A stretch of 64,000 nt of DNA from Alphaproteobacteria bacterium (lineage in GTDB: Bacteria; Pseudomonadota; Alphaproteobacteria; UBA9219), in contig JAQVZU010000002.1 in the NCBI GenBank assembly GCA_028708035.1, forward strand, positions 300 through 64,299, in the 5' to 3' direction. Numbering within the stretch: position 1 is the first letter of the stretch; every line of letters starts with the position of its first letter. Below the pieces are notes generated by a model, which made no database searches, was not told the origin of the DNA, and saw nothing but the letters and a program-made list of their open reading frames with translations. Made by a program: the position numbers and the translations under genes. Below are positions 1 to 5,627 of this stretch, piece by piece.

Positions 1-195
1 TTGAGCAAAACATAAAGCAAGGACCGTTTCTGCATTCTTGCGTCGCTTATATTCGGCCATGAAGTGCACGTCGTTTTTATCGTCCCACGTTGAGGGATTC
101 AGTAGCGTAATGCATCGACTGCTCAGGATATGTATTGTCGCCGCTAGATTTGTATAACGCCGAAAAGAAACCTGTCCCATAGTTTGCCGCCTCCT

Positions 196-3100
196 TTAAT
201 GACCCACAGCCTTTTTCCCTTCGCACATAAGTAATGTGTTGCCTTTTTGGCAAAGCCGTTCTTGCGTTAGCAAATCCTGAATTTGTGCTTCGATAACTTC
301 GCGCAACTGTGCGCTGGACGATTTAAAGCCGAACAAACGCAAAATCTCCGTTGGGAGCTGCTCTCGTTCCGCCCCGAAGTTTGTTTCGATTACGGTCAGA
401 ACAGCCTTTTTAATTTCACTGGGTGGCAGGTTCTCCGGCTTTTTTAGGCCAAGAGACGAAACGGCTCCGCGATCTCTAACCTTTATCTCCGCATCTTGTT
501 TGAAATAAAACTCCCCGTCTTTTGCGACAAGATTGCGCCGAACCGCATGGGCTAACCCCGCTTTTACTTTGTCCTGTATGCGACTACCCGCGCGACCAAG
601 ATTCCATAAGGTCCGAACACGGGTAATAATTTCGCTTTCATGGACCGGCATTTCGGCTTCGACAATCTTTGCAACAATCTCTGCCATTTCATTATCCCCC
701 AATTCATGCGGTTCACGATGAGACGGAACGGGGACAACGGCTTCTTGATATGGAACCGATAGGCTTTTCTCTCCGACGCTTACAAGAACATTGAGCATGT
801 TTCCGTCGTCGTAAGAGACGATCTCAAAAACCTGCTTTGCTTTTGGCCTTTCGTCTTCCTGTTCTTGTGCAACAAGGTTTTTCTTGGCCTGTTCTACTGC
901 GGCTACGGTCTTTTCGAGCTGTTCATTGGGCCGCCGAAACCAGTCCGTACTCCATATACGATGGATTATCCATCCATGGTCTTCAAGAACCGCCTGTCTC
1001 AACCTGTCGCGATCACGAGCAGAACGGGAACTATGATAACTTGCGCCGTCGCACTCAATGCCAAGGACAAAGCGTCCGGGTTTTTCGGGATCGACTATTC
1101 CGAGATCAACAAAGAACCCGGCAATTCCAATCTGGGTTTTAACGTCGTACCCGCGCGTCCGCAAAGCGGCGGCAACTTGTTCTTCGAAAACCGAGTCCGC
1201 TTCACGTTCCGTTGTGCGTCCAAAATCAAGCTTGCCCGTCTGTGCAAACTTCAAGAAGAGTTTAAGGGACGAAACGCCTGCGCCCTTTGCTCTTTCCAAA
1301 TCTATGTCGTCGGCAGTAATCGAAGAAAAAAGCTCACACCGACGCTTTGCGCGAGAAATCAAAACGTTTAAGCGACGCTCGCCGCCCTCTGAGCTAAGGG
1401 GGCCAAAACGCATTGCCATATAGCCGCTTGAATTGCGCCCATAGCCGACAGAAATAAAGATTACGTCGCGTTCGTCGCCCTGAATATTTTCGAGGTTCTT
1501 AACAAAAAATGGTTCGTCGATATGCGCCTGTGTAAAGAAAGTCTCCGTTTCCGGGTGCATACGGCGTAAGAGTTCAAGCTCATCGATAATCGCCTGTTTC
1601 TGTTTGATCGAAAAAGTTCCCACGCCGAGGGATAAATGCGGATAATCCTTCGCGTGTTGAATTACCGCTTTAGCTACGGCCTTGGCTTCTTGCGGATTCG
1701 TTGCCGTACCGCCGCTATCGAATGTTGCCTGCGGAAGATAATTGAACTTCAACCCCATGCCCGAAGCCGCATCATAGGGGCTGGGAATGATAAAGAGGCG
1801 ATTTTCGTAAAATTCGCGATTGGATACAGCAATTAACGACTGGTGTCTGCTCCGGTAATGCCATCGCAGCATGCTTTGTGGGAAACCCCGTGCCACGCAT
1901 AGGTTGAGAACGCTTTCAACATCTTGCACCGCAAGCGCAGCGTTGTCGTCATCATCGTTATCGTTTGCATTGTCGGTCACACGTGAAAAGAACTTTGTCG
2001 GAGGTAATTGGCGCGAGTCGCCAACAACGACAATTTGTTTCGCACGGGCAATCGCGCCAAGCGCATCGACAGGCTCAACCTGACTGGCTTCGTCCATAAC
2101 AAGCAAATCAAAAGTCATTGATCCCGGTTCAAGAAATTGAGCGACGGAAAGAGGACTCATCATAAAGACCGGCTTAATGGCTTGAATGGCAAGACCGGCA
2201 TGTTTAAGCAATTGACGGATGGGAAGGTGATTGCGCTTCTTTGAAATCTCCCCATTCAAGATTCCAAGTGCGCCGATGCCCCCTTCGCTTCGCGGCAACG
2301 AATTATAGTGTTTCTGTCGAATTTCAATTCTAGCCTGTTCGATCCGATGCAAATCATTAGCGCGGAAATTTTCAACCAAATTGGCATGAAGTTCGCCATC
2401 AAATTCCCGCAATAGCGGATGCTCCGTAAACACGACTTCCGTTAAAGTATCGTAATAAGCCCGCTCGAAAACGTCGTGCGCCTCATCCGGCAGCAAAGTT
2501 CCTTTCCACAACCTCTCGCCAAGGGTACGAAGCCCGCCTTCGCATATCGCATCGTATCGACCATTAAATGAAATCCACTTGGAAAGGGATTCCGTATTCC
2601 TTGCCCAACTCGTTAGCCTTTCGTGCAAAGCGTCCCGGTTAATTGCTTCGACGGTCGAAACGTCAAACGCAGCGCGTACATCGAGCTGCAAAGTCCTGAA
2701 CAATTCAGACAATTTAGAGAAAAACTCCGGCAATAGCTTTTCCAAGCTAGAGGCCGGGACGCTAAGCGTGGGGGCATTTTCAATCTTCGAACAAGAGACA
2801 AGAAAATCATTCGGGGATAAAGTATCGGGAACGGATTTTCTCCATGCAAGAACGTTATCGAGTTTTGCCCAGTCGGAATGGGTGCCTTGCCACAGTTTCC
2901 CAAAAGCTTTTCGTCCGGCCTCATCATGCTCTTTTAGAAGTGCAGCTAGTTGTTGCGCGGAGATTATGTCGTCGGCAAAAGCTAAGCGGTCTTCGTATTT
3001 TTTTGGCAGGGGGCCGGATGCAATCGAGGTCAACAGAACTATTGCCTGTCGATACGAGGGGAAGAAGACTCGAAGAAATGACTTTCCATGCAAAGCGATT

Positions 3101-5025
3101 TGTGTTCTGCATCCCGTAAGGTCGGTGCTCCACGCCAGTTGCGTCGCGTCTTTTGCAAGCCTTTCTGCCAAAGCCGAATATTTGCAACCGCTTTGGACAA
3201 TATCCCCAAGCAAAGAAAGGCCGTTTTGCCACAACGAGTCCCCAAACGCGGAAATGTCCGCTTCCGGTAAATTCGATGCCGCCTTTGCCGCACTCGCGGC
3301 GACATTAAGGGAGTGAAGGGTGCTTTCGGTTGAAGGTATTTTTTGTTCGACCTCGACGGCATTATTTAGGATGGCCTCGAACAGGTTTTGAAGGTCCGAT
3401 AGGCTGTCACAAAGACGATCATATTCGTTGGGCAACAACTGCGAACGACGAACGCCGCGCCAAGGATGTTGCACGGGAAAGCCGATTTCTTTGATTCTGG
3501 CTGTTATATCGGCGAGGCGCTCTTTTTTGTCCTTTTTGTCGGCGGCAGACCAATTTTCAGGACATTCTAGAACGACGCCGCGAACGTCGATCTTGTTTTG
3601 TCGAAGACGAACGGATTCCCCAATAATCTGATAGGCCGTCAATCCCGAAGGCTGGTGTTGCTGGTGTAGAACTTTTGCGTGTTCATTGAGCTTATTTCGA
3701 AGGGAGGCCAGTTGAGCAAGCGTTTCTTGTCCGTTGCAGTTTTTGGGTCGCCCGATTTCGCGGGTGCGCTGGATTTCTTCGAGAACCGCCCGTTTGTTGG
3801 ACTTATTGCTATGAAGTTCAAGACAAAGGGAGCCAAGGCCAATATTCGTCATGCGGCGGAAGACGACTTCCAAAGCAGACATTTTTTCTGCAACAAATAA
3901 AACTTTTTTACCGTCCGCAACCGCGTTAGCGATTATGTTCGTAATTGTTTGGGATTTTCCTGTCCCCGGCGGTCCTTGAATGACCAAGTTTCTTCCGCGA
4001 CGCACTTCTTCAATCGCAAGCGCCTGAGAACTGTCGGCGTCCATGACATGTAGGATTCGTTCCGGCGGTAAAAATTGGTCTATATTTTCGTCTTCGCCGA
4101 TCATACCGTCCGTTACAGGGAACCCATCGGTAAGCAATCCTGCAACAAGCGCGTTTTTGTCAATCTTCCCGTCGTCGGGCCAAACTTCCGGGGCAAGATC
4201 ACGGTACATAAGAAATTTAGCGAATGAAAAGAAGCCAAGAACCATATCGTCTTCGATAACTTCAAATCGTTTGTGTGCCTCAACCGCCATTCGAATGGAG
4301 TTCATAAAGGCAGAAATGTCGAGTTCGTCGGTTTGAGGCAAATCGGGCAAAACAAGGCCGAATTCAGCTTTTAACTTAGCTTGCAACGAAAGGTTCGCTG
4401 CGCAATCTTCATTGCGCCAACGCAATTTGAATTTCTGTGCGGCGTTTCCACGATCAAGGGTTACCGGTACTAAAAACAACGGCGCATAACGCGCTTCATC
4501 GGAGCTTTCCGCTTCGAACCACTTCAACATCCCTATAGCGAGATAGAGAATGTTGACGCCCTGTTCCTCTTCAAAGGTTCGTGCATCATAATAAAGGGAA
4601 AGAAGGCGCTTTTGTAAACCTTCCGAAGTCAGCAAAGTTTGCAACCGATGATCTTGGTGACGTTGGGCAACGCCATTTTCGGAAACCTCATCATCTTCCG
4701 GTTGGGGCAACTCTCCAAAATCATCGTCTTCTTGAGGTTGCGCTGCGGGGTCAATGTTTGTATCCACTGCCGCCTTTTGCTTCTCCCTTCCCGGAAGAAA
4801 GGTCAGGGTTTTCCCTTCGGATACCAATAAACGATAGGTTTCCGTGGCTTTCTCGTCGCAGATTTCTATTGTTTTGGCGCTTTTCTTCTGTCTGGGAACG
4901 TTGAGAAGCCTATTTCTTAAAGACAAATCAAGAAGAGCCTGACGGCTTGTTTCAAGTTGCGCTGCGACAGTTGCCATTTGTTTTCCGCCTTGCCGATCAT
5001 TCCGAGAAAGGAATGATAGCGCCAT
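196..5025 (-). CDS. Large multidomain SF1 (Upf1-like) helicase with an N-terminal DUF4011 region, split AAA_11/AAA_12 helicase core, a DUF559/Vsr-like PD-(D/E)xK endonuclease-like domain and C-terminal DUF3320
   Basis: 1609-aa ORF with ATG start. Walker A is GPPGTGKSQT and Walker B is LLVMDEASQ. C-proximal helicase motifs SLIAVSNREFYENRL and VIFISVGYGRNS are present. The following region GIECDGASYHS...DRLRQAVLEDHGWIIHRIWSTDWF is typical of DUF559 REase-like domains, and the N-terminal LYLAIGMLKW...PLFLVPVTL block is typical of DUF4011. Confidence 0.8.
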   Translation of the reverse strand: MALSFLSRNDRQGGKQMATVAAQLETSRQALLDLSLRNRLLNVPRQKKSAKTIEICDEKATETYRLLVSEGKTLTFLPGREKQKAAVDTNIDPAAQPQEDDDFGELPQPEDDEVSENGVAQRHQDHRLQTLLTSEGLQKRLLSLYYDARTFEEEQGVNILYLAIGMLKWFEAESSDEARYAPLFLVPVTLDRGNAAQKFKLRWRNEDCAANLSLQAKLKAEFGLVLPDLPQTDELDISAFMNSIRMAVEAHKRFEVIEDDMVLGFFSFAKFLMYRDLAPEVWPDDGKIDKNALVAGLLTDGFPVTDGMIGEDENIDQFLPPERILHVMDADSSQALAIEEVRRGRNLVIQGPPGTGKSQTITNIIANAVADGKKVLFVAEKMSALEVVFRRMTNIGLGSLCLELHSNKSNKRAVLEEIQRTREIGRPKNCNGQETLAQLASLRNKLNEHAKVLHQQHQPSGLTAYQIIGESVRLRQNKIDVRGVVLECPENWSAADKKDKKERLADITARIKEIGFPVQHPWRGVRRSQLLPNEYDRLCDSLSDLQNLFEAILNNAVEVEQKIPSTESTLHSLNVAASAAKAASNLPEADISAFGDSLWQNGLSLLGDIVQSGCKYSALAERLAKDATQLAWSTDLTGCRTQIALHGKSFLRVFFPSYRQAIVLLTSIASGPLPKKYEDRLAFADDIISAQQLAALLKEHDEAGRKAFGKLWQGTHSDWAKLDNVLAWRKSVPDTLSPNDFLVSCSKIENAPTLSVPASSLEKLLPEFFSKLSELFRTLQLDVRAAFDVSTVEAINRDALHERLTSWARNTESLSKWISFNGRYDAICEGGLRTLGERLWKGTLLPDEAHDVFERAYYDTLTEVVFTEHPLLREFDGELHANLVENFRANDLHRIEQARIEIRQKHYNSLPRSEGGIGALGILNGEISKKRNHLPIRQLLKHAGLAIQAIKPVFMMSPLSVAQFLEPGSMTFDLLVMDEASQVEPVDALGAIARAKQIVVVGDSRQLPPTKFFSRVTDNANDNDDDDNAALAVQDVESVLNLCVARGFPQSMLRWHYRSRHQSLIAVSNREFYENRLFIIPSPYDAASGMGLKFNYLPQATFDSGGTATNPQEAKAVAKAVIQHAKDYPHLSLGVGTFSIKQKQAIIDELELLRRMHPETETFFTQAHIDEPFFVKNLENIQGDERDVIFISVGYGRNSSGYMAMRFGPLSSEGGERRLNVLISRAKRRCELFSSITADDIDLERAKGAGVSSLKLFLKFAQTGKLDFGRTTEREADSVFEEQVAAALRTRGYDVKTQIGIAGFFVDLGIVDPEKPGRFVLGIECDGASYHSSRSARDRDRLRQAVLEDHGWIIHRIWSTDWFRRPNEQLEKTVAAVEQAKKNLVAQEQEDERPKAKQVFEIVSYDDGNMLNVLVSVGEKSLSVPYQEAVVPVPSHREPHELGDNEMAEIVAKIVEAEMPVHESEIITRVRTLWNLGRAGSRIQDKVKAGLAHAVRRNLVAKDGEFYFKQDAEIKVRDRGAVSSLGLKKPENLPPSEIKKAVLTVIETNFGAEREQLPTEILRLFGFKSSSAQLREVIEAQIQDLLTQERLCQKGNTLLMCEGKKAVGH

Positions 5026-5127
5026 ATTGTTTCAAGCTCAATCCATGGTTGAGGCGGCCCAAAATATGGATGCCGATCTATTTTTGGGGTGGAGAATGAG
5101 GGAAAAGGGCCTCGGCGAGTTATCTTA

Positions 5128-5199
5128 GCGGGCGAGGGGGATTTGAACCCCCATCATCCCGATCTTCAATCGGACGCTCTACCGTTGAGCTAGCGCCTG
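5128..5199 (-). tRNA. Probable tRNA-Phe (anticodon GAA); the acceptor stem as read has two mismatches
   Basis: Minus-strand sequence shows a D-arm TAGCTCAACGGTAGAGC, an anticodon stem-loop TCCGA-TTGAAGA-TCGGG (anticodon GAA) and a T-arm GGGGG-TTCAAAT-CCCCC. CCA is not encoded. Acceptor 5' CAGGCGC pairs imperfectly with 3' TCGCCCG. Confidence 0.6.
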
Positions 5200-5397
5200 A
5201 CAGTAAGATCGAGATAGGTCGGGTTCTCAAAGATACAAGGGGAGAAAACGAAAATCTTGACTGTTCACGCCGATTGCCGGAGCTTGTCTTCATTCGGCTT
5301 TTAAGGCCGCTAACTACCTAGGTACTACCTGAGACGGTGAAAACGGTTTTGGGAAAAAGAAGGGTCTGGACTAAGTCCATACACCACTTGAAGAAAG

Positions 5398-5472
5398 TGG
5401 TGGGTGCGACAGGGATTGAACCTGTGACCCCTACCGTGTGAAGGTAATGCTCTCCCGCTGAGCTACGCACCC
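5398..5472 (-). tRNA. tRNA-Val (anticodon CAC), CCA encoded
   Basis: Minus-strand GGGTGCG-TA-GCTCAGCGGGAGAGC-A-TTACC-TTCACAC-GGTAG-GGGTC-ACAGG-TTCAATC-CCTGT-CGCACCC-A-CCA forms a canonical cloverleaf with a perfect 7-bp acceptor stem. Confidence 0.85.
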
Positions 5473-5560: not shown

Positions 5561-5604
5561 CATCAAAATAGAAAAACGCCGCCCTCCGGTCCCGAAGGCG
5601 GCGT
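5561..5604 (-). terminator. Intrinsic terminator downstream of phaB
   Basis: GC-rich hairpin ACGCCGCC...GGCGGCGT followed on the minus strand by TTTTTCTATTTT. Confidence 0.6.
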
Positions 5605-5627
5605 TTTGCTTCTTTTCTTGCCCTGTT

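Follow-up and report, generated by a model that had tools for sequence, protein, structure and literature searches.

A giant open reading frame (ORF) standing beside tRNA genes in an uncultured alphaproteobacterial lineage raises two questions, namely what its product does and how the gene came to lie there. The gene, which probably occupies positions 196 to 4977 on the minus strand, lies in the 64,000-nucleotide stretch analysed here (contig JAQVZU010000002.1 of assembly GCA_028708035.1), which we call the window and to which coordinates refer unless a contig is named. It encodes a protein combining a DUF4011 N-terminal domain, a Upf1-like superfamily 1 (SF1) helicase core, a Vsr-type nuclease domain and DUF3320. 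As judged from profile matches, the gene belongs to an already catalogued single-gene anti-phage family, of which it is a fairly divergent member, and it probably functions as a helicase–nuclease of the Hhe/ProA/PDC-S37 kind, directed against phages or other mobile genetic elements. In addition, the comparison with relatives indicates that the gene is part of a segment that starts at the 3' end of tRNA-Val(CAC), is exchanged horizontally and is younger than the flanking backbone.

Family assignment and domain architecture

Among the PADLOC models (PADLOC-DB v2.0.0), PDC-S37 gave the best match, with 1907.6 bits and an E-value of 0, aligning residues 19-1598 of the protein with model positions 5-1544 of 1550. 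Among the NCBIfam models, the cut-off of the equivalog ProA (NF058533.1) was narrowly passed, at 1566.4 bits against 1500, with an unbroken alignment that runs from model position 350 to 1902 (of 1903) and falls short of covering the whole model, as is also seen with other short-form homologues. Five homologues, short and long forms alike, score 1547-1645 with the same model, and the clade therefore lies barely within ProA's permissive cut-off and outside its core. The second-best NCBIfam match was Hhe (NF042953.1), strong over residues 743-1399 only, that is, the C-terminal ~650 residues. The PADLOC model of Hhe, second after PDC-S37, was matched partially, with 838 bits in three stretches, while the PADLOC models of the Mokosh proteins MkoA and MkoC gave 97 and 78 bits.

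The minus-strand ORF at 196..5025 has 1609 codons and is open throughout; the residue numbers used here follow this frame. Translation probably begins at the second ATG (4977), which gives a protein of 1593 residues. Three findings point to it: the NCBI protein P0001, of identical sequence and 1593 aa long, begins at this codon; a relative carried by a 1.9-kb metagenome contig (L006), recovered through an exact-pattern scan, has an in-frame stop codon upstream of the second ATG; and a promoter-like sequence, TTGAGC-17 nt-TATCAT, found at 5041..5013 on the minus strand by consensus scan, overlaps the first ATG. This putative promoter element (5013..5041, minus strand) is identical in the L006 copy, and the sequence immediately upstream of the block is unconserved. 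The probable coding sequence is thus 196..4977 on the minus strand, an extent to which the ORF, P0001, the L006 stop and the PDC-S37 and ProA matches all contribute.

Going along the protein, all parts lying on the minus strand, the DUF4011 domain covers residues 31-218 (4372..4935; Pfam E 1.6e-44). It is followed by the first part of the RecA1 domain of the helicase (3676..4035), recognised by Pfam AAA_11, AAA_19 and AAA_30 and by matches to the PDB structures of IGHMBP2 and Upf1, and including the Walker A motif GPPGTGKS (residues 351-358, nt 3952-3975). The AAA_11 model matches in two stretches, of which the first spans residues 331-450. Within RecA1 the AlphaFold2 model places an all-alpha insertion of ~470 residues (~441-910; 2296..3705). 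The remainder of RecA1 and RecA2 follow at 1336..2235, covered by the second AAA_11 stretch and by AAA_12 (residues 1045-1230), and contain Walker B, DEASQ (residues 978-982, nt 2080-2094), VGDSRQLPPT (nt 1996-2025) and the RecA2 motifs QGDERDVI and GGERRLNVLISRA. The Vsr/DUF559-type (MTES_1575) endonuclease domain lies at residues 1280-1376 (898..1188; Pfam E 1.6e-36), and the C-terminal region (196..714) comprises DUF3320 (residues 1438-1485, nt 571-714, Pfam E 3e-12) and a conserved tail. DUF3320 overlaps a winged-helix (wHTH) domain according to Anantharaman et al. 2013 (PMC3710099).

The catalytic motifs were assessed in an alignment of 120 homologues. Motifs I, II, III, V and VI of Upf1-like SF1B helicases are all present, and the blocks GPPGTGKSQ, DEASQ, VGD..QLPPT, WHYRS, QGDERDVI and GGERRLNVLISRA, invariant among the homologues, are all kept here. 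The same holds for the nuclease block GF..D / G.ECDG..YH / SARDRDRLRQ / W..HR.W., likewise invariant in the 120 homologues. Specifically, D1307, E1324, D1326 and H1331, invariant in 66-120 homologues, are the putative catalytic residues, and the domain aligns with the DUF559 structure 3HRL at the vD, E.DG and H positions. PDB matches of the helicase core (IGHMBP2, DNA2, Upf1 and Sen1) are limited to short motif blocks, with a best E of 6e-7, and the PDB search returned no solved structure for any close relative. The search for structural relatives of DUF4011 and of the helical insert detected none. The insert is the most variable region of the protein, at 30-56% identity compared with 48-69% for the N-terminal region, as would be expected if it meets phage-specific cues. 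On its sequence, the protein is intact and its catalytic motifs are fully conserved.

These data bear out much of a preliminary description of the locus: the frame of 1609 codons and its five-part architecture are found again in the ORF listing and by Pfam, the putative catalytic residues that the nuclease was expected to keep are the invariant D/E.D/H set aligned to 3HRL, and the defence-type reading is backed by the PADLOC and NCBIfam profiles. The helicase is indeed split, since Walker A and Walker B stand 620 residues apart, as against ~160 in IGHMBP2; this spacing gives an insert of roughly 470 residues, not the ~550 first estimated. Similarly, the name Vsr/DUF559-type holds for its Vsr part, MTES_1575 reaching 124.7 bits against a Pfam threshold of 38.2, while the DUF559 model itself stays below threshold (17.7 against 20.6 bits). 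The statement that the biological role of the architecture is not established is outdated, the family being labelled anti-phage as ProA and candidate as PDC-S37, with an architecture of the Hhe type.

The tRNA-Val(CAC) site in relatives

The second question concerns the position of the gene. A tRNA-Val(CAC) with an encoded CCA, a conserved host tRNA, was called by ARAGORN and Infernal at 5398..5472 on the minus strand, its 3' end reading …GGTTCAATCCCTGTCGCACCCACCA. Between this tRNA and the gene lie a spacer and a tRNA-Phe-like element; on the other side the window continues with housekeeping genes, those for acetoacetyl-CoA reductase (phaB), a thiolase and MerR and, farther away, with Mg-chelatase-like, YqeY and DnaG genes. 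The L006 contig shows the same order of phaB, tRNA-Val, tRNA-Phe-like element and start of the DUF4011 gene. Nucleotide identity between the two is 75.7% in phaB and 44%, unalignable, in the spacer from phaB to tRNA-Val; it is 100% in tRNA-Val, 88% in the spacer from there to the tRNA-Phe-like element, 96% in that element and 90.9% in the DUF4011 coding sequence. By the Nei-Gojobori method, phaB gives a proportion of synonymous differences (pS) of 0.82, which is saturated, and a nonsynonymous divergence (dN) of 0.079, while the DUF4011 fragment, the first 468 nt of the gene, gives a synonymous divergence (dS) of 0.40, a dN of 0.028 and a dN/dS of ~0.07. This contrast in synonymous divergence indicates that the segment from tRNA-Val onward has been common to both lineages far more recently than the split of their backbones.

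Backbone relatives were found through proteins 84-90% identical to PhaB. MerR, HU, thiolase (phaA), phaB and tRNA-Val are present in L060/L061, L064 and L066/L067, and the DNA that follows differs among the relatives: type I secretion genes come after tRNA-Val in L064, a helix-turn-helix (HTH) gene and a peptidase gene come after phaB in L068/L069, and in L066/L067 (PhaB 87%) a P4-type integrase lies 145 bp past tRNA-Val, with small HTH genes. None of these five contigs carries a DUF4011 gene at this place, while L060 and L061 end ~100 nt past the tRNA, too early to show the downstream content. In the alignment, tRNA-Val is identical in L006, L061, L063, L064, L066 and L067, and four different sequences stand directly past the CCA. 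Identity through the CCA followed by four sequences points to an integration hotspot at tRNA-Val(CAC), at which the DUF4011 gene is one of several cargoes, and the tRNA 3' end is the likely integration site. From this comparison we infer the mobility of the present copy. Its variable segment is expected to continue past position 1, with the far border beyond the window edge.

Three further observations were made around this site. In L060 (PhaB 90%) the resident tRNA, at 4452-4526, is called tRNA-Val(GAC) and has a different anticodon arm, so the tRNA at the site is not identical in all relatives. In L066 (10801-16835; L067 9107-10090) the integrase is followed by a 398-aa uncharacterised protein, several small HTH_3 genes and then argininosuccinate synthase. 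In the window, a strong intrinsic-terminator-like hairpin of 14 pairs (8 G-C) with a T-run, at 5573-5607 on the minus strand, ends phaB before the tRNA-Val promoter region.

The preliminary description had suggested a tRNA-linked island at the tRNA-Phe. A variable segment at a tRNA is what we find; the anchor is tRNA-Val(CAC), and the tRNA-Phe call itself falls within the variable segment. The suggested comparison of presence and absence showed the gene to be variable, as it is missing from L064 and L068/L069, and L066/L067 carry another island there. The composition shift that was to be looked for is there and modest: the content of G and C at third codon positions (GC3) of the DUF4011 gene is 0.487, the lowest of the 24 window genes and 2 sd below the others (0.578 +/- 0.042). 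Content beyond the window edge, also suspected, is indicated by a further gene that runs off the window from position 180 on the minus strand.

This small downstream gene, of which the window holds the 5' part (1..180, minus strand), begins 16 nt past the stop of the large gene and has homologues of ~91 aa; it is probably further cargo of the same variable segment. Neither its 60-aa fragment nor the 91-aa homologue has a Pfam or NCBIfam match. A likeness to DUF2971 was seen by eye only and, as Pfam and NCBIfam give no match, the gene was left unassigned. Its homologue P0121 (L011, 10001-10276) belongs to an island with a P4-type integrase, where it is flanked by GmrSD and an MmeI-like restriction–modification gene on one side and by a 1003-aa protein with weak matches to NACHT/STAND-like NTPases on the other.

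Could the gene be a dead relic, left without a current function in an old island whose integrase is gone? The window holds neither an integrase nor an attachment (att) repeat, and the neighbouring tRNA-like element looks degenerate, as such a history would have it. The frame of 4.8 kb has nevertheless stayed open, every catalytic motif is intact, the promoter-like element is conserved and the dN/dS of ~0.07 against L006 points the same way, so that we give next to no credence to this possibility and keep to a functional anti-phage or anti-element protein.

Homologues and the tRNA-Phe-like element

The family is very large, with more than 8000 proteins, a lower bound, at E <= 1e-10, and includes short forms of ~1580-1600 aa and long forms of ~1860-1900 aa. 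The best non-self match among the matches listed has 67% identity, and matches at 60-61% occur in metagenome-assembled genomes of Bacteroidetes and Ktedonobacteraceae, which across such phyla argues for horizontal transfer. A scan of the genome contig collection gave two relatives only, at 38-39% identity.

The surroundings of the closest homologues are rich in mobile-element and defence genes. In L001 (66%) a canonical tRNA-Phe is followed by a P4-type integrase, SocA_Panacea, AlpA, AAA_25, a terminase-like gene and then the DUF4011 gene, downstream of which come a 444-aa protein and DarT/Macro. In L010 (65%) the order is tRNA-Cys, integrase, HTH_17, Toprim_3, DUF927, the gene and DUF4145; in L008/L009 (63%) an integrase, AlpA, a relaxase and MobC adjoin the gene; in L007 (P0002, 67%) it adjoins a Phage_Mu_F gene; and in L002/L003 (64%) it lies near a tRNA-Gly, with DUF927/Toprim further on. 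No neighbour is common to L001, L002/L003, L007, L008/L009 and L010, and the small downstream gene of the window has no homologue there, a pattern that fits a single-gene system.

Two of these neighbourhoods deserve a separate description. In L001 (14773-17776) the 444-aa protein begins 9 nt downstream of the homologue and has no significant Pfam match; by eye it looks like a coiled coil with hydrophobic C-terminal helices, and a DarT/Macro (DarG-like) pair comes next. In L002 (16865-22234) and L003 (9537-14906) an HTH regulator, a cyclodipeptide synthase (CDPS), DUF2268, a nitroreductase-like gene and YcaO lie by the homologue, and this cluster resembles a natural-product cluster in or beside the variable region.

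Homologues below 60% identity were found on 472 plasmid records, 212 of them conjugative. Most are plasmids of Klebsiella or megaplasmids of Ralstonia, and of the Ralstonia megaplasmid records found (108 records) nearly all carry a homologue. On the megaplasmids of Ralstonia solanacearum (H8-H11, H15-H21) the homologue, at ~47% identity, is often broken into two or three pieces, either by an IS5 element of the IS1405 family or by a group II intron (ltrA), so that the gene has been inactivated repeatedly and is dispensable there. Among viral sequences, an alignment-based scan of IMG/VR gave 46 loci with a best identity of 49%, and a scan of viral contigs with the single protein gave no match.

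These distributions bear on the view that the protein is a housekeeping helicase–nuclease of genome maintenance, processing repair or replication intermediates in a Dna2- or Vsr-like manner, inherited vertically and near tRNAs by chance. The helicase core does resemble DNA2, homologues carry the JGI annotation 'very-short-patch-repair endonuclease', and the gene is found at the same position in L006 under strong purifying selection (dN 0.028); yet it is absent after phaB or tRNA-Val in L064, L066/L067 and L068/L069, its synonymous divergence is far below that of the neighbouring phaB, and its GC3 sets it apart from the other window genes. Elsewhere in the family, a DUF4011 gene of P. aeruginosa is core, present in every isolate (PMC10250203), and the 108 Ralstonia records could be taken in the same sense, although several of those copies are interrupted by insertion sequence (IS) elements or group II introns and hence dispensable. 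The closest homologues, moreover, have DarTG and similar genes as neighbours in integrase islands, identity of 60% reaches across phyla, and curated family models label the family anti-phage. We consider a housekeeping role quite unlikely.

A second possibility is that the protein mainly serves its carrier element, by excluding rival plasmids, satellites or helper phages or by stabilising the island. The closest homologues are cargo of P4-type integrase/AlpA/primase elements and of a mobilisable element with a relaxase, and both the plasmid records and the 46 IMG/VR loci that encode relatives agree with such a role. No element machinery is seen beside the gene in the window, however, and the L006 copy likewise stands directly past the tRNAs; in molecular terms the two functions are hard to separate, as the same activity protects the host. 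An element-serving role thus appears unlikely as the main one, and we retain defence of the host against phages and mobile elements as the probable function.

The DNA between tRNA-Val and the gene adds an observation of its own. A tRNA-Phe(GAA)-like element, part of the variable segment, was called by ARAGORN and Infernal at 5128..5199 on the minus strand; its 3' end is 103 nt from the first ATG, close to the ~100 bp given in the preliminary description. It scores 51.6 bits with the Rfam tRNA model (gathering score 29) and folds into a cloverleaf with a GAA anticodon. The imperfect acceptor stem pointed out earlier is seen by both programs, as mismatches A2.C71 and C7.U66. The element has C73 and G37, where A73 and A37 are the bacterial norm for tRNA-Phe, encodes no CCA and ends ...TCGCCCG-C-TAAG. 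The L006 copy has the same D, anticodon and T arms, and its acceptor stem is defective in another way, with no compensatory change. Because the stem is defective in both copies, and in view of C73, G37 and the missing CCA, a working tRNA-Phe is unlikely. All the relatives scanned for tRNAs (L060-L067) lack the element, and it has no match in viral contigs.

Between the element and tRNA-Val lies a 198-nt spacer (5200..5397, minus strand), the first stretch of the variable segment, common to L006 only (88%). Both the element (96%) and the spacer exceed the identity of neighbouring neutral proxies (~69-72%), with binomial P values of 1e-7 to 1e-10. The spacer belongs to no Rfam family and its folding energy is not unusual (z +0.42). 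A two-piece tmRNA or another known RNA was considered and rejected, as neither Rfam nor ARAGORN gave a call, z was +0.42 and the two-sequence alignment contained one compensatory pair. It is a distinctly improbable reading that element and spacer form a functional RNA module transferred with the helicase–nuclease gene; such a module could act as a tRNA-like signal for processing or stability, could serve the Upf1-like motor as a decoy or sensor, or could be the element's own attachment site. Alternatively, the tRNA-like element is possibly a relic attachment site.

The same element enters a further explanation, in which the protein is an RNA-directed surveillance enzyme, its Upf1-like motor acting, somewhat as in Mokosh, on RNA that is tRNA-like or of phage origin, and its nuclease-like domain serving RNA binding or cleavage; the adjacent tRNA-like element could then be the partner RNA. 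The helicase core is indeed closest to the RNA helicases IGHMBP2, Upf1 and Sen1, with 97 and 78 bits to MkoA and MkoC, and the tRNA-like element accompanies the gene and exceeds neutral sites in conservation; yet the homologues in L001, L002, L007, L008 and L010 have no such element directly upstream, and between the element and the present gene lies a conserved promoter-like site of the gene's own. As to the nuclease domain, it aligns weakly with RAP domains (E 0.017), which bind RNA, whereas Vsr/DUF559-type domains are DNA endonucleases where studied. DUF3320, which overlaps a winged-helix domain (PMC3710099), is assumed to bind DNA. All together, an RNA-directed enzyme seems very improbable to us, and we continue with a protein that acts on invading DNA.

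Proposed action and comparison with known systems

Several points weigh against the anti-phage reading and the mobility of its gene. On the side of function, a PDC label denotes, as we take it, a candidate defence system proposed from genomic association and not a validated one; the ProA match passes by a small margin and leaves out the first ~350 positions of the model; and the Hhe equivalog cut-off was missed, at 1105.8 bits against 2000. The literature search found no paper behind the ProA name, none on PDC-S37, and no experiment on the protein or on a homologue of at least 50% identity. The family is rare in sequenced phages, where three weak matches only were obtained, and in the wider family a gene can be a fixed part of the chromosome, as the core DUF4011 gene of P. 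aeruginosa illustrates. The sensing step proposed below is conjecture, DUF4011 and the insert having no structural relatives. On the side of the locus, no integrase lies in window positions 1..5397, no direct repeat of the 3' end of tRNA-Val or of the tRNA-Phe-like element was found within the 64-kb window, and the L006 comparison is that of one 1.9-kb contig reaching 468 nt into the gene. An att repeat was likewise not found in L001 or L066 within the DNA examined.

With these points in mind, the protein may act as follows. Until it meets a phage cue, which might be phage DNA, an intermediate of its replication or a protein of the phage, the enzyme would be kept inactive, or be targeted, by DUF4011 and the ~470-aa helical insert. 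Its motor could then load on single-stranded nucleic acid and move 5'->3', by analogy with Upf1/Dna2-type helicases, while the C-terminal winged-helix region (DUF3320) would bind DNA. The Vsr-type nuclease would cut the DNA of the invader, a direct and modification-independent restriction as proposed for MTES_1575-type proteins (PMC3710099), and the outcome would be either selective degradation of phage DNA or abortive infection. We hold the details of sensing with much less confidence than the anti-phage function itself, and neither a described mechanism nor a solved structure was found for the family.

As to its significance, the gene is one more divergent member of a very large catalogued defence family and, as such, changes little. 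The locus illustrates cleanly, in an uncultured alphaproteobacterial lineage, how a natural tRNA-Val integration hotspot holds cargo that differs among relatives. The constrained tRNA-like element that travels with the gene is a minor finding still in want of an explanation. Because DUF4011 and the ~470-aa insert have no detectable structural relatives, much could be learned from the structure or biochemistry of any member.

How, then, does the locus compare with known systems? As in P4-type integrase islands at tRNAs, a variable segment extends from a tRNA 3' end, and a relative has such an island at the same tRNA-Val; here, in contrast, the gene and not an integrase directly follows the tRNA. 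With the Upf1-like helicases IGHMBP2, Upf1/NAM7, Sen1 and DNA2 the protein has motifs I, II and VI in common, and these helicases have no counterpart of its helical RecA1 insert. Mokosh has a phospholipase D (PLD) nuclease, which is missing here. MTES_1575 was introduced by Anantharaman et al. 2013 (PMC3710099) as a new restriction endonuclease of the Vsr family, and the same authors predicted that the giant proteins joining SF1 helicase, Vsr and wHTH restrict invading DNA without modification. Those giants have the same nuclease family, followed by DUF3320/wHTH and fused to an SF1 helicase; they carry HEPN or transglutaminase domains, whereas the present protein has neither by Pfam and begins with DUF4011 instead.

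The hhe gene was reportedly tested experimentally by Gao and colleagues. A review table includes it among the defence systems that it credits to Gao et al. 2020 (Science 369:1077); genome surveys report 'Gao Hhe' or 'DUF4011 domain-containing protein', and the NCBIfam description reads 'DUF4011 domain-containing anti-phage protein'. The architecture is common to both, a single polypeptide joining DUF4011 to an SF1 helicase and a Vsr-type nuclease, and the Hhe models are 200-300 positions longer. By these matches, the protein represents a sister family of Hhe and not an Hhe orthologue. Compared with ProA, it has no counterpart of the first ~350 model positions, since the gene begins ~150 nt past the tRNA-like element, and its score is about half that due from a core member of so long a model. 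The closest counterpart is PDC-S37, one of the PDC systems that the PADLOC 2022 paper does not describe: the match runs from end to end, the system is likewise a single gene, and no difference is detectable at the level of sequence.

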